Source: Bacillota bacterium (GTDB taxonomy: Bacteria; Bacillota; DTU025). From it: DNA of 64,000 nt. How positions within the stretch are numbered: position 1 is the stretch's first letter; each line of letters opens with the position of its first letter. Location: positions 608,001 to 672,000 of the forward strand of contig JBMNJT010000002.1 of NCBI GenBank assembly GCA_050951805.1. Direction: 5' to 3'. Shown in pieces: positions 7,934 through 17,098 of this stretch. The position numbers and the translations under genes were made by a program. Under the pieces are notes generated by a model. It did no database searches. It had not been told where the DNA came from and worked only from the letters and a program-made list of their open reading frames with translations.

Positions 7934-10900
7934 GTGTCGAGATCCTCTATTTGGAGGCGCGGCGCAATTGTTGCGATCATCGCAGTCATGCTCGCAGGTT
8001 TTGCTGCAAGCGCAGCGCCGAACCTGCCGGCTATCCCCAAAACCCCTATGGGTTCAGAAGAGTTCGTACCCGTCAGTAGGGGATACAGAGAGCCAGAATA
8101 TATCGACGGCGAGATTATCGTGCAGCTCAAACCGATGCTTACAGTATCCAGCGCGGTTGGTATGGAAGCTGCTGTTGAAGGATTTCACCTGCTCAATGTC
8201 GAGCTTGGGGCCGAGATAGTAGAATCGATGAGCGTTGGCCACGATGCTGAGCTGTTCCTGGTGCGAATTCCAGCCAGCATGAGCGTGGATGAGGCTGTTT
8301 TGACATATCAATCGAAGAAGTTTGTCGAACACGCCGAGCCAAACTATCTCTGGTACCCAGAGGCTCCGGTTTTCCCGAATGACCCTCACTTTGTGCGAAC
8401 CTGGGGTATGCACAACATAGGACAGGATTTTTCTCCTGGCCTGTTTTGGGAGAAGGGCATTCCCGGAGCCGACATCGGCGCGCCTGAAGCGTGGGGCGTG
8501 CGCACCGACGCATCTTCAGTTATAGTGGCCGTCATTGACACGGGTATAGATATCAATCACCCGGACCTTGTGAACAACATCTGGGTCAATGAGGTCGAAC
8601 TTGACGGAGTGGATGGAGTCGATGATGATGGCAATGGCTACATCGACGACATCTACGGATGGGACTTTGCCAACAACGATAACAGTGTATTTGATGATGC
8701 GGTAGCTGATCGCCATGGGACACACTGTGCAGGCACGATCGGCGCTAAGGGCAACAACGGTCGTGGGGTTGCCGGTGTGGCCTGGGATGCTCAGATCATG
8801 TCGTGCAAGTTCATTCACGGTCAGAGCGGATCAACGTGGAATGCGATCAAGGCGATTGAGTATGCTTCGATGATGGGTGCCAGGATCGCAAGCAATTCTT
8901 GGGGCGGTGGTGGGAAGAGCGAGTTCTTGGAGAAAGCTATTGCAGATTCAGGCATGTTGTTCGTCGCTGCTGCAGGAAATGCGGGCGTGGACAACGACAT
9001 CATTCCACATTACCCATCTTCTTACGATCTGCCAAATGTTATCGCTGTGGCTGCATCTGACTGGAACGATAACCTAGCTAGTTTCTCCTGCTATGGCGCA
9101 GAGAGTGTAGACTTGGCAGCTCCTGGCTATTGGATTCTCTCTGCATATGCGGGCAGCACTGGATATGTATGGATGGGCGGCACGTCCATGGCCACTCCGC
9201 ATGTAAGCGGCGCGGCTGCGTTAGTAGCAGCGGAGTATCCAGAGATGCCGCTGTATCCCGGAGCGGAGGGGTGGAGCGAGGGTCAACTCACAGTCAAGGA
9301 TGTCCTGCTCTTGTCGGTAGACAGGGGCCCAGCTTTTGCAGGCCGGATGACTTCTGGAGGCAGGCTGAACGTGGGCAACGCCATCAAAATGGCATTCCCC
9401 GCCGTGATCGAGTCCGCGGCGGCGGATGTCACGTTCGGGTCAGGTCCGCTGGCGGTCAACTTCTCGGCTCAGGTCGAGAATTCAGTCGCAGTGGCCCAGT
9501 GCTGGTGGTCGTTTGGCGACGGCTCGGCTCCTGTGTACTCCTACGACGCGTCACATACCTACACCGAGGAAGGCGTTTATCTGGCATGGTTTAATGTTCG
9601 GAGTCATGCCGGCATAGAGTCGAAATGGCCGGTGCAGGTTGTTGTGGCGAATCCAGGAACCATTGTGTACATCGATGACGATGGAGGGTTCCCTTTTGAG
9701 AACTTCTTCTTGGCTGCGTGTGAGACAGCTGGGCTTGACTGTGTGGTCGTCGACTCCAGGTATCCGCTGGGCCTTCCCGACGACTTCAATGATAGGTTGT
9801 TGGTGTGGAATACTGCTTTCTCATGGAGCGATACGCTCCTACCGGATCAAGAAGAATTCTTGGCCAGATTCCTGGACAATGGCGGCAGGCTTCTGATGAT
9901 ATCTCCCGATTATTTGTATGACATGGGAGACCTGACGCCCTTTGCCGAGCAGTATCTGCACGTATGGGACTATGCAGACAACATTCCGATGGGACAGTGG
10001 GACGGCATTGCCGGAGATCCGATCACCGACGGCATGTCGATTACGGGAGAACTAGGCATGGAGCTTGAGGATGCCCTCTGGCCCGATCTCAACGCTAGGC
10101 CCATTTTCGAGGGCGAGTTTGTGAGTTACACGCTATGGCCTGCGCTAAGATACGCTGATGAAACCTACCGGGTGGTATTCACCACTGTGCCGTGGGAAGA
10201 GCTCCCCATGGTCTATGAGGATGAAGAGGGCAACGTGGTTAACCCTGATCCCAACAACTCGGCGTACTTTCTCACCAAGGTCTACGACTACCTGATGCGT
10301 GAGATAAACACCCCGCCCACAATCGACAAGGTCGAGGCAAGCACCTACTTTGCGGAAGTGGGCGAAAAGATAGCGTTCACGGCCAAAGCTCATGACGTCG
10401 ATGGGGATGCCCTCATGTACAGCTGGGAGTTTTACAGCATTGAGGATCCCATGAGGGGCCAGACAATCCAGGTAGCTTTCGATGAACCCGGCGTGTACGA
10501 AGGCATTCTGATGGTGGAGGATGACCGGGGCGAATCGACAAGGTTGCCCATCGTCGTTGTGGTTGTCAATCCAGGTGCGGTGCTGTTCGTAGATGACGAC
10601 GATTCAGATGGTGACACCGAGAGCTATTTCTTCGACGCTTTCGACACCATCGAACAGGAATACTTGGCAATCACTCCCGACCTCGCAATAGGGGAGAGCG
10701 GCGCGAAGGCCGGGCTTGAGCGTTTCAATGTGGTATGGAACTGCGGCGAACTCGGTGGCCTGAACGAACTGGAACAGATGGCGGTTGCTGATTTCCTCGA
10801 TAAGGGCGGCTCGCTGTTCCTCGCTGGTCAGGAAGTCATGTTCGAGTTGGCGTACGGATCTTCGAACGGCATGAAGTTCGCCCGGGATTATCTGCACGTG

Positions 10901-15800: not shown

Positions 15801-17098
15801 GGCCTGTAGGTTCGAAGGCCAACGTTACGGCTGAACATTCCGAGTCGCGAACCCAATCGCATTCAGAGAAGGGCGGGCAACCGATAGGCAAGGAAGTGCT
15901 CGTTATATCGAATAGAGTCGGAGGAACCATAGATATCGGTCCGAAGATAGATGTCTCATATGTTCTGTCTCAGGTGGACGACAACGAAGCCGACGGGTTC
16001 GAACGGGAGGAGCACACTCTGTCTATCACGGGGCGGCAGAGCTTCTTCGAAAACAAACTGACATTGGGTGCTGGGTACGAGACGGTCCAAAGTGAGAATT
16101 TGATAAGGCCAAGCAGCTCATATCTTCAGGTAAATCTGCGGGGCGATGCGACGTTCAAAATCGATGCTCTTTCTGTGTCGGCGCTGTATCGAAAACCTGT
16201 GAAAACTGTGGCGCCCGGAGGGGCGGACCAACGGGTAACAGGCACTGAAGAGGTCAGCCTGAACGCGCAGTGGGGGAAACAGCTCGGTCCAATAGCGCTC
16301 AAGGCATACTACAGACAGACTTTGCGCGACGATATTGCCACAGAACGAAGGTTCGACGATAAACGCGCTGAAGTTCGCGCGACATTGCCAGTGCTTTCGT
16401 TCAATGAGAATGCTCTGACTCCAAGCACGGTGTTGAAGTGGGAGAAGACTGTGCCCTATTCCGGCCAGGCCAAGGAGGGCATCACTGTTCAGGGAAGCCT
16501 GTCGGGTAATCTGGGCTCCTTCCGGACATCAGGCGGGATTAACTTGAAGCGAACTGAGTATCCCGGCATCGAAAAGCTGACTTTGGATACTGAGGTCTTC
16601 GCTACCCTCAGTTCGACAACGCGCGGGCGGTTTGTTCCCCAGTTCGATCTGAGGTGGAAACGATCGAGTTCTGAGAGGGCGGGGTTGGGGGTTGTAGCGA
16701 GCGATTCGGTGACAGGAACAGCTCGGGCAATCTACACTCCCAAACAGGGACTGAGCAACGTAGCATCGCTGGCATACTCCCTCACATCATCATCAGGATC
16801 GATGGGAGTGCAGAAGCATTCTGTGAGCCTTCAGGATACTATCGATTACAGGTTGAACGAGAAGGTTACGATAACAGGGGAGGCTTCTGTGAGGTCGACC
16901 GCCCCCGAACTTGGGGCTCTTGCTGTAGGCGAGGGTTCTGACATCAGGGGAGTGCTCAAGAGTGGGCTTCGTTACAGAATCAGTGACATGTGGTCGTTTG
17001 GCGCCTCAGCGGGCTATAATGTATACAAGGCTCCGGCCAGTCAAAACGGGTTTGCAAAAGGGCTGACTTTGGAAGCGGGGCTGAGGGCAGTATTCTAG
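12869..17098 (+). CDS. Large outer-membrane protein, SprA (T9SS translocon)-like, with internal beta-propeller
   Basis: SprA-type segments 'FDLMQLLSLNVRGQV...ISANLD...LRGLEL...GRVQG...KTFQG' and 'LSIAQGSEKVYLNDVLLQKNIDYTIDYELGILTI'. Propeller repeats 'GLPSNNLTC...VWVGT', 'GLPSDAISDI'. Long amphipathic strand region and terminal 'GLRAVF'. Confidence 0.7.
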   Translation: MRAFCCRRRGPSACRAFSLTIFVLASAVLISFMASEAPAYAAEKQEAPLQIGGDVEFKLRCAWGDSAALLGTGYTPGRFDLMQLLSLNVRGQVAPGLTISANLDNRKDGNLQVMELKLDGDPLKGRFGGLSFRSQTPYTSYSARLRGLELNAKFPEVEMGVTFGRVQGIAAKKTFQGNTAQEVIVYEPAATYGPSPSASGFSASIDGMEYYLLSSSYDPDFMGCWIRYDDEDELGEGRTLEETLNLWDLGYLYLEDPEARGGISAGGKVPLARGQFITVSSSEEMLALRSEIRDLLRGQIQSMIRSYNSEHGLVGSAQKRYPFVYGSETETAFLDDLISRHAHIIAGMEDGGPGTTVLDARADSYLRRRLYDLGQTDVVPGSVAVEVRKAGKFLSVETELPLIYQVAYDIGVIEFDFPPSFFDIYDAVRIKYRHTVAMGIFNLGLSIAQGSEKVYLNDVLLQKNIDYTIDYELGILTILRTLGPDDVVKVEYEYFRGPFGAVADYKSNFYGAIFGWTPNENLKLKMDVAVYSDDPKSAAMPEATSTMPNTHAIIGFSGQYDNKGLNLSTDLAFSHDQFPFDDNRKTNAANRISGIMGAVDAESKSYLLISHSDGVSVGGDEFRNYSIGSGLASPVVRDVASADENWFFATDGGLTVLSATPGPAGQNPFDYVSNWRRIYMSAGLPSNNLTCVATTPWSVWVGTADKGVACADLADLDTWTVYRKSAGSGLPSDAISDIAYDPAHDLILVGFGDGVAVLEGAHFEHELAGVGVTSIVSATSAEAVDGWRTFAAAKDGVYARDEAGGWTKVVDDSIVKDPAAIEVWNRLLWIGGRNGLWVWDGRNCDIVEATRGYSITALGVGRGRKYEGGETLWAGTAGIPAGTGKDPYRIVVFEVLTPEIVAEHDGTELGVSGHDPRRYVEIAAQDHTTDGYAARATARYSLGSGSIYGNYETLAPGFTKLGQTSRQAVDVWRLGTQWPVGSKANVTAEHSESRTQSHSEKGGQPIGKEVLVISNRVGGTIDIGPKIDVSYVLSQVDDNEADGFEREEHTLSITGRQSFFENKLTLGAGYETVQSENLIRPSSSYLQVNLRGDATFKIDALSVSALYRKPVKTVAPGGADQRVTGTEEVSLNAQWGKQLGPIALKAYYRQTLRDDIATERRFDDKRAEVRATLPVLSFNENALTPSTVLKWEKTVPYSGQAKEGITVQGSLSGNLGSFRTSGGINLKRTEYPGIEKLTLDTEVFATLSSTTRGRFVPQFDLRWKRSSSERAGLGVVASDSVTGTARAIYTPKQGLSNVASLAYSLTSSSGSMGVQKHSVSLQDTIDYRLNEKVTITGEASVRSTAPELGALAVGEGSDIRGVLKSGLRYRISDMWSFGASAGYNVYKAPASQNGFAKGLTLEAGLRAVF

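Follow-up and report, generated by a model that had tools for sequence, protein, structure and literature searches.

A probable reduced type-9-like export system with cognate carriers in a sporulating, two-membraned Bacillota-type bacterium

Genes of the locus

A 64,000-nucleotide stretch from a Bacillota bacterium (GenBank assembly GCA_050951805.1, contig JBMNJT010000002.1, forward-strand positions 608,001 to 672,000) was analyzed and is referred to here, at its full length, as the window. It contains three consecutive genes on the + strand whose products resemble a cargo, a carrier, and the outer-membrane translocon from a type IX secretion system (T9SS). As summarized in Table 1, these are a subtilase ending in a C-terminal sorting domain (CTD), a PorV-like barrel, and a large SprA-like protein. 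The same three genes had been singled out in a preliminary description made from the sequence alone. The listing of open reading frames (ORFs) agrees with that description, and the motifs it quoted are found in the translations. On the basis of homology and gene context, we consider it probable that the genes belong to a reduced type-9-like export and surface-anchoring system that uses cognate carriers and operates in a sporulating, two-membraned bacterium of Bacillota type.

Table 1. Features of the locus, with positions counted from the first nucleotide of the window (aa, amino acids).
Feature	Position	Strand	Basis
Cargo: secreted S8 subtilase, 1289 aa, signal peptide	7934..11803	+	ORF listing, domain searches, giant subtilase paralogues elsewhere in genome
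Peptidase_S8 catalytic domain, aa 195-441	8516..9256	+	PF00082, 181.1 bits
T9SS type-A-like CTD, aa 1205-1289	11546..11800	+	TIGR04183; aligned with 17 other CTDs; predicted PorV-like docking
PorV/PorQ-family outer-membrane barrel, 301 aa, signal peptide, C-terminal Phe	11804..12709	+	NF033709
Terminator-like hairpin, then T run, between PorV-like and SprA-like genes	12741..12756	+	Weak observation
Short SprA-family protein, proposed outer-membrane translocon, single copy	12842..17098	+	Profile, fold and context evidence
SprA-homologous N-terminal region, aa 55-583	13004..14590	+	hhalign, TIGR04189 stretch, SprA 6h3i stretch
Inserted beta-propeller, two-component-regulator type, about aa 598-918	14633..15595	+	4a2l and 3ott/3va6 profile matches; pLDDT about 90 in both models
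About 25 long beta strands in succession at the C-terminus, aa 937-1416, terminal Phe	15650..17089	+	DSSP strings of model

Two of the genes have alternative starts. The PorV-like gene encodes 301 aa from a TTG codon and 296 aa from the ATG at 11819, which is the probable start and gives the length first reported. The SprA-like gene encodes 1418 aa from a TTG codon and 1409 aa from the methionine at residue 10 (position 12869). The latter is the likely start because this methionine is conserved and 1409 aa is also the length of a 99%-identical database protein (P0001).

The cargo is a protease of several domains. A Pfam search identified a fervidolysin-like prodomain, the S8 domain, two PKD domains, and a Big_7 immunoglobulin-like (Ig) domain. 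Its end had been described as resembling a Por secretion tail, and this is borne out by one of three CTD profiles: TIGR04183 (Por_Secre_tail) scores 26.0 bits against a cut-off of 23 over aa 1210-1279, while PF18962 gives no match on the protein and PF13860 stays below its cut-off (19.2 against 27 bits). Judged by these profiles, the TIGR04183 match of the window subtilase is marginal.

The second product passes the PorV/PorQ family model NF033709 (108.9 bits against a cut-off of 90) and carries a FadL-like N-terminal motif, in keeping with the 296-aa PorV/FadL-type barrel proposed earlier. It falls below the equivalog cut-offs for PorV (NF033710, 42.5/250 bits), PorQ (67.4/220), and PorV2 (59.7/325). 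A predicted complex of the mature barrel with its cognate CTD scored 0.90, compared with 0.00 for the best of three controls. Solved complexes attained this mark in 58 of 80 cases and mismatched pairs in 2 of 110, counts that apply only roughly here because the prediction used its own alignments. At least 95% of contacts are shared between the runs, and the partner has a predicted local distance difference test score (pLDDT) of at least 87. The predicted interface uses the conserved CTD stretches “GP(N/V)PA”, “LYVYD.AGR”, “NGLY”, and the terminal “RLV..R”. The model may express likeness to the solved PorV-CTD complex and is no proof of binding. Covariation between barrels and CTDs (Spearman 0.64, 28 non-independent pairs) was dropped as evidence of specific binding, as it is expected from co-duplication of the cassettes.

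Such pairs recur throughout the genome, which comprises 2.75 Mb in 8 contigs and is 97.08% complete with 2.73% estimated contamination. The genome is designated G000 here, and the window corresponds to G000:C2:608001-672000 on the 1.56-Mb contig C2. Searches with TIGR04183 found eight CTDs at the C-termini of frames of 876-3239 aa, seven of them above the cut-off; these seven paralogues score 31.8-38.4 bits. NF033709 found eight PorV-family genes, all above the cut-off (100.1-117.8 bits). In every case (8/8), the PorV-like gene is found immediately downstream of a CTD protein, on the same strand and separated from it by 0-158 nt. Those cargo proteins that were examined comprise S8 subtilases carrying numerous PKD repeats and one PKD/Ig protein that has no protease domain. 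The SprA-like gene is present in a single copy, and the window cassette alone adjoins it. This cassette is also the most divergent of the eight, with 51-54% identity to the others in the PorV-like protein and 42-47% in the CTD. The preliminary description had seen a minimal locus; its three genes stand, and the system is not confined to them, given eight cargo-PorV cassettes for one SprA-like gene.

Eight is a minimum count, because contigs C4 (2065-3558) and C6 (313-4005) each stop within another subtilase gene and the frame of one cargo is divided between two ORFs, of 1363 aa and 1651 aa (G000:C1:46757-56007). Among the cassettes on contig C1, three show 94-99% identity across the PorV-like and CTD parts. 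The cassettes have arisen by recent duplication and break the assembly.

The large protein and its relationship to SprA

No Pfam family was found on the third protein. We conclude that it is a genuine, strongly reduced member of the SprA family with an inserted propeller, not an SprA equivalog. This assignment is made because four lines of evidence agree. First, a profile of 22 members of the window family (A1) matches the solved SprA structure 6h3i with E 2.8e-4 (query 40-142 on SprA 140-249). The alignment is collinear with a stretch recognized by the SprA model TIGR04189 at aa 440-502, and both motifs that had been quoted as SprA-type fall within these two stretches. Second, a search of 1.84 billion representatives with a profile built from 11 sequences of the N-terminal 543 residues (A4) retrieved 930 proteins at E <= 1e-3, with 255 reaching E <= 1e-10 and 89 reaching E <= 1e-30. 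Six distant matches were scanned with TIGR04189, which has a cut-off of 200 bits. P0151 (1926 aa) passes with 243.1 bits, P0166 (193.2 bits) and P0123 (150.1 bits) fall short of it, and P0107, P0113, and P0116 show no SprA match.

Third, the intermediate proteins connect the two families. P0151, P0166, and P0123 are the three scanned members of an alignment of 12 such proteins (A7). Compared by hhalign, A1 and A7 match with a probability of 99.8% and E 2e-29 over 456 columns, covering aa 55-583 of the window protein, and A7 in turn matches SprA 6h3i with E 3.4e-47. Fourth, two overlapping partial AlphaFold2 models, covering aa 219-1418 (pLDDT 78.3, predicted TM-score (pTM) 0.52) and aa 45-1244 (pLDDT 80.0, pTM 0.54), are of a very large beta-barrel type and both have SprA chains as their top three matches in the PDB. 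For the former the match to 6h3i_A has E 3.2e-12, and for the latter that to 8gl6_A has E 6.7e-16. These chains outrank propellers, LptD, SlpA, and ushers. The possibility that the protein is itself LptD-, usher- or SlpA-like was considered and rejected, as those fold matches are weaker and come without sequence support. The earlier proposal of a protein of about 1409 aa with SprA-type motifs and a terminal Phe is thus upheld as family membership. The TIGR04189 check supports an SprA-like stretch but not equivalog status (37.3 against 200 bits).

The protein can be divided into three parts. The region homologous to SprA (aa 55-583) comprises the barrel's first strands, a domain of mixed alpha/beta type, a beta-sandwich bearing the motif “GSEKVYLND..DYTIDYELG”, and four long strands. 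For the middle (about aa 590-865), the matches are to periplasmic propellers from hybrid two-component sensors of Bacteroides (4a2l, E 4.6e-12; 3ott/3va6, E 1.5e-6). The C-terminal part is a run of long strands. If strands of at least 8 residues are counted in the DSSP strings, there are 8 in the N-terminal part, 4 in the center, and 25 in the C-terminal part, or about 37 in total.

Of 25 homologues of the protein, six come with a source name, in each case “hypothetical protein”, and the remaining 19 come with none. The ESM Atlas returned only the protein’s own cluster at 0.99, with other leads below 0.9, and a query with P0151 gave leads at 0.87 only. The PorV/PorQ family and the T9SS type A sorting domain would already be nameable by NCBI models; the SprA-like protein is different.

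Host and distribution

By its gene content, the host is a sporulating diderm of Bacillota type; its position might, at a guess, be Limnochordia-like. The window contains gerA/gerB/gerC (56338..60163; GerA 450.5 bits) and the large signal recognition particle (SRP) RNA (26854..27118; 208.6 bits), which agrees with the Bacillota-type markers first noted, in addition to a full rRNA operon, dnaX, and recR. Contig C2 also carries a Spo0A equivalog (G000:C2:1378780-1379550; 296.1 bits) and SpoIVA (742.6 bits), for which B. subtilis alone scores among the control genomes. Outer-membrane machinery is represented on the same contig by BamA (C2:696993-698747), with an Omp85 match of 170.3 bits and three POTRA stretches. 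A second Spo0A copy was found on contig C8 (G000:C8:237826-238629; 288.3 bits), and both copies exceed the equivalog cut-off. The pair reflects either a real duplication or the origin of contig C8 from a related organism, in view of the contamination estimate.

LpxC gave 0 matches in the genome, with four control genomes positive, and LptD likewise gave 0 matches in the genome. LpxB is represented in the genome by a weak 20.9-bit stretch only. An LptF/LptG permease domain (316.7 bits) occurs in a protein of 1103 aa (G000:C2:699511-702822, or 4752..8063 of locus L055) that is encoded downstream of BamA at a distance of about 0.8 kb; a 198-aa ORF on the minus strand lies between the two. With this fused LptF/G-like permease present but LpxC and LptD not found, the signs on lipopolysaccharide (LPS) are mixed.

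The gene neighborhood is shared with close relatives. In 15 related contigs from independent assemblies, the upstream AcrB gene, 351-aa ORF, MatE, and orf156 are kept, as are orf192, PGM, and others downstream. All but one of these contigs (14/15) are labelled Bacillota, Firmicutes or Clostridia. Directly upstream of the SprA-like gene, a PorV-like gene is found in 11 of the 14 related loci that have that side, and a CTD-bearing cargo precedes the PorV-like gene in nine related loci. One related contig, JAKOVB010000015.1 (L018), is labelled “Pseudomonadota bacterium” and has a cargo-PorV-SprA-like cassette with 46-48% identity to the window; this label is probably a binning or classification error.

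The family extends well beyond close relatives. In a sample of 401 genomes of the phylum, 24 have an SprA-like match, four of these being weak and partial; they fall in 15 of 277 genera and include single-contig genomes. A match to the PorV family model (PorV_fam) is present in 22 of these 24 genomes and in 50 of the 377 others, counts among which kin are not independent. Many of the 50 PorV-only genomes have weak matches to the N-terminal motif.

Seven distant loci, with a guanine-plus-cytosine (GC) content of 0.36-0.71, were also examined. The PorV-like gene is directly upstream in four of them. Three (L048, L044, L047) repeat the order cargo, PorV-like gene, SprA-like gene. In the fourth (L045), the order is the same, but an 803-aa barrel that shares only the sandwich motif replaces the SprA-like protein. 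Cargo and PorV-like genes are the only families that recur around the SprA-like gene in the distant loci.

Locus L045 (G165:C1:3159000-3178999, about 1256..11099) comes from a single-contig genome with a GC content of 0.36. It encodes a 617-aa subtilase and a 1494-aa M6 metalloprotease whose C-terminus matches the CTD region of PorU and, with 43.5 bits against a cut-off of 35, the model for type-B sorting (TIGR04131). Its PorV-like barrel scores 81.5 bits, and the 803-aa protein ends in Phe. A still smaller form of the system may be represented by this locus.

Other features of the window were noted as well. A LolA-like ORF (3..803) and an AcrB-type resistance-nodulation-division (RND) pump (817..4101; 747 bits) are followed by a 351-aa signal-peptide protein (4091..5146), which overlaps the AcrB gene, ends in Phe, and belongs to no Pfam family. 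This trio is kept in L011, L015, and L019, and the 351-aa protein could be an unrecognized outer-membrane channel replacing TolC. A minus-strand ORF (20182..20961) encodes a lipoprotein-like product of 259 aa with Asp/Glu runs interspersed with Trp and no family match; it is conserved beside PGM in L015 and L016. A 1538-aa protein encoded at 50165..54781 combines a C-terminal F5/8 type C domain with tetratricopeptide (TPR) repeats and several domains of Fn3 and purple-acid-phosphatase-N-like type. The SprA-like gene is directly followed by two tRNA-Arg genes (ACG and CCT; 17249..17421), ahead of which lies the region's best promoter-like site (17177..17206; 11/12 matches). Terminator-like sites are not in excess in the region (11 against 8.0 +/- 2.6 in shuffles) and promoter-like sites are likewise no commoner than in shuffles; therefore, no operon is claimed.

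Interpretation and comparison with known systems

No motor, ring or sortase component was detected. Whole-genome searches gave 0 matches at E <= 0.01 for GldL/PorL (TIGR03513) and GldM/PorM (TIGR03517), and 0 matches for GldK/PorK (TIGR03525), GldN/PorN (TIGR03523), and the PorU sortase (NF033707). The search for further T9SS parts covered these five models. As none of the 14 control genomes exceeded their cut-offs, sensitivity is unproven and the result reads as “not found”, not as proven absence. With the same reservation, the earlier statement that the window lacks porK/L/M/N/U holds for the window and extends to the genome. PF01618 identified two MotA/ExbB-family genes, one in a flagellar cluster and one in an ExbB-ExbD pair. 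The latter cluster (L054; G000:C2:1199985-1206475) continues with a TonB-like 327-aa ORF, a 674-aa protein, and a 795-aa SLH-domain protein, and no Plug domain of TonB-dependent receptors was found in the genome. Possibly the cluster is Tol-like; alternatively, it could be a candidate for energizing the SprA-like pore.

In the proposed mechanism, cargo proteins, mostly giant S8 subtilases with PKD repeats, would cross the inner membrane by Sec and fold in the periplasm. The CTD would be recognized by a cognate PorV-like carrier docked on the SprA-like barrel, and cargo and carrier would exit the pore together. The cargo would probably then be held non-covalently on the surface, with its CTD in its own PorV-like barrel; non-covalent retention is suggested because PorU was not found and LpxC was not detected. 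Each cargo would have one PorV-type carrier and, without a sortase, would stay on it permanently. This is the stripped-down T9SS-like export outside its known range that had been suggested at the outset, now backed by homology and gene context. The conditions then named as refuting it (no SprA-like barrel in models of the large protein, no BamA or outer-membrane machinery, a chimeric join) all turned out in its favor. It had also been conjectured that the system might be ancestral and might have a different energy source or none.

Several observations weigh against this interpretation. The SprA-like gene has no adjacent PorV-like gene in three of the 14 close loci (L019, L020, L022) and in three of the seven distant ones (L042, L043, L046). 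The protein reaches only 37.3 of the 200 bits set by TIGR04189. Its sequence homology to SprA is confined to the first 530 or so residues, leaving the C-terminal 800 or so without a match. Foldseek TM-scores to SprA are low (0.25-0.31 by query, 0.14-0.21 by target), with root-mean-square deviations of about 20-27 A. The models are partial, so that barrel closure, cap, and lateral opening are not visible in them, and the strand count was taken from DSSP strings and not from coordinates. In the six-frame genome search, the window CTD scored 22.3 bits, just under the cut-off and the weakest of the eight. Given that a PorV-CTD complex has already been solved (8gl6), the high score of the predicted complex may reflect likeness or memory only. 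Finally, extraction of the carrier-cargo complex in Bacteroidota needs the GldLM energy chain, yet no GldK/L/M/N was found here; an SprA-type pore without motor parts may work differently.

Among the rival explanations, the one that survives best, though we consider it unlikely, is that the PorV-like barrels are mere anchors or receptors for neighboring CTD proteins. The SprA-like protein would then be, for example, a general large pore or an exporter of lipids or polymers, and the cargo would traverse the outer membrane in some other way. The loci in which the SprA-like gene stands apart from PorV-like genes are compatible with this, as are the terminator-like hairpin between the two genes, the LptD, SlpA, and usher barrels among the fold matches (E 1e-9 to 1e-5), and the 50 genomes with a PorV_fam-like match only. 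However, many of those 50 matches are weak and limited to the N-terminal motif, and PorV_fam is found in 22 of the 24 genomes with an SprA-like match. SprA is also the best fold match of both models and the only barrel with sequence-level homology, and adjacency to cargo-PorV cassettes is kept across deep divergence. Moreover, barrels of the small FadL-like kind are not known to let folded proteins of 1300-3200 aa through.

We regard as slightly less likely still that a complete canonical T9SS is present, with a motor (PorL/M), ring (PorK/N), sortase (PorU), and further components too diverged for models trained on Bacteroidota or located in the unassembled 3% or so of the genome. The searches lacked a positive control among the 14 control genomes, the 97.08% complete assembly of 8 contigs breaks at cassettes, and the SprA-like protein was itself nearly missed by the SprA equivalog model, so its partners could be missed too. 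Against this, five independent models found nothing at the threshold used, and the only MotA/ExbB-family genes are the flagellar one and that of the ExbB-ExbD pair. In addition, no conserved fourth gene family lies within about 8-10 kb of the SprA-like gene in the seven distant loci, three of which are from single-contig genomes.

An assembly chimera or a recent transfer from Bacteroidota, for which one could cite the draft state of the genome (8 contigs, 2.73% estimated contamination) and the Pseudomonadota label of L018, is highly improbable: GC is even across the window (0.52-0.57), the locus shares its 1.56-Mb contig with rRNA, GerABC, Spo0A, SpoIVA, and BamA, the flanking genes AcrB, 351-aa ORF, MatE, orf156, and PGM recur in independent metagenome-assembled genomes (MAGs), the family occurs in 15 of 277 sampled genera, single-contig genomes included, and the SprA-like protein is far from Bacteroidota SprA.

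The reduced export system with cognate carriers thus remains our preferred interpretation. A stronger version of it is possible, though we would put it at somewhat below even: the SprA-like pore and its cognate PorV-like carriers may form a self-sufficient minimal type-9 module, without a GldLM/GldKN chain or PorU, in an outer membrane possibly without lipid A. If so, the core of translocon, carrier, and CTD would be older or more mobile than the machine built around it in Bacteroidota. Carrier release would be powered otherwise, for example by the orphan ExbB-ExbD-TonB-like system or by folding of the cargo.

The system is of interest for its host range, its half-size translocon, its use of one carrier per cargo with type-A-like CTDs, and its apparent lack of motor, ring, and sortase. 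It raises the questions of whether the core is enough for transport and what replaces the energy chain and sortase. If only a half-size SprA, PorV-type carriers, and CTD cargo are kept, the role of the motor at the translocon would become directly testable. Single-contig relatives with the system (G390, G263, G165) may be cultured strains, so that experiments could be possible. The findings also bear on the display of very large surface proteases by diderm Firmicutes, on the annotation of MAGs, and on the evolutionary origin of the T9SS. No description of a T9SS-like system in Bacillota or Limnochordia was found in a literature search that left subscription journals and supplementary files outside its scope.

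In passages of the available literature, the T9SS is confined to Bacteroidetes/Bacteroidota or the Fibrobacteres-Chlorobi-Bacteroidetes (FCB) superphylum (PMC13721041, PMC12398890, PMC9170169, PMC11205867). It is described there as requiring about 20 components, including a rotary motor driven by the proton motive force (PMF) whose action at the translocon is given as an open question (PMC13721041, PMC9143113, PMC10994853). The present system differs from the canonical one in its spore-forming Bacillota-type host, outside the FCB superphylum, and in that no GldKLMN or PorU was found.

The SprA-like protein shares several properties with SprA/Sov as known from F. johnsoniae (6h3i, 8gl6, 8gl8). 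The N-terminal 530 or so residues are homologous and SprA is the best PDB fold match. Both are very large beta-strand proteins; the DSSP count of about 37 long strands compares with the 36-strand barrel given for SprA in part of one source (PMC10994853). Further likenesses are the terminal Phe and the location beside a PorV-family gene and a CTD cargo. The differences are its length (1409-1418 aa compared with 2403 aa), its low score on TIGR04189 (37.3/200 bits), the inserted regulator-type propeller, and a C-terminal half without sequence match to SprA.

In the Bacteroidota system, as passages of two papers describe it, the CTD binds the loops of PorV inside the pore and energy is required to pull the carrier-substrate complex away (PMC10994853, PMC9143113). 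The former adds, in the part available, that a GldLM-driven energy chain extracts this complex and that SprE and SkpA are essential (PMC10994853). The PorV-like barrel of the window resembles PorV/PorQ, including PorV bound to a CTD in 8gl6, in passing the family model, in the FadL-like N-terminal motif, and in its predicted binding of conserved CTD motifs. In contrast, the barrel is below the equivalog cut-offs for PorV, PorQ, and PorV2, and there are eight paralogues, one per cargo gene, instead of one general carrier.

The proposed non-covalent anchoring would correspond to surface holding through type-B CTDs and PorP/SprF-like carriers in Bacteroidota. PorZ-PorQ is held likewise in that phylum, where PorZ-PorQ and PorU-PorV attachment are both known, and type-B cargo and carrier genes are adjacent there. 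According to passages of two papers, type-B substrates use alternative cognate carriers, which then serve as surface anchors independent of PorU and anionic LPS (A-LPS), so that one cargo has one dedicated barrel, as in the present system (PMC9143113, PMC10994853). Unlike in the type-B system, a type-A-like sorting domain (TIGR04183) is combined here with a barrel from the PorV/PorQ family instead of PorP/SprF.

Two-partner secretion (TpsA-TpsB) also places the gene of a large secreted protein beside that of its own outer-membrane barrel. TpsB is an Omp85-type transporter that recognizes an N-terminal TPS domain. The present system, by contrast, has a FadL/PorV-like barrel, a C-terminal signal, and a separate giant barrel in addition.

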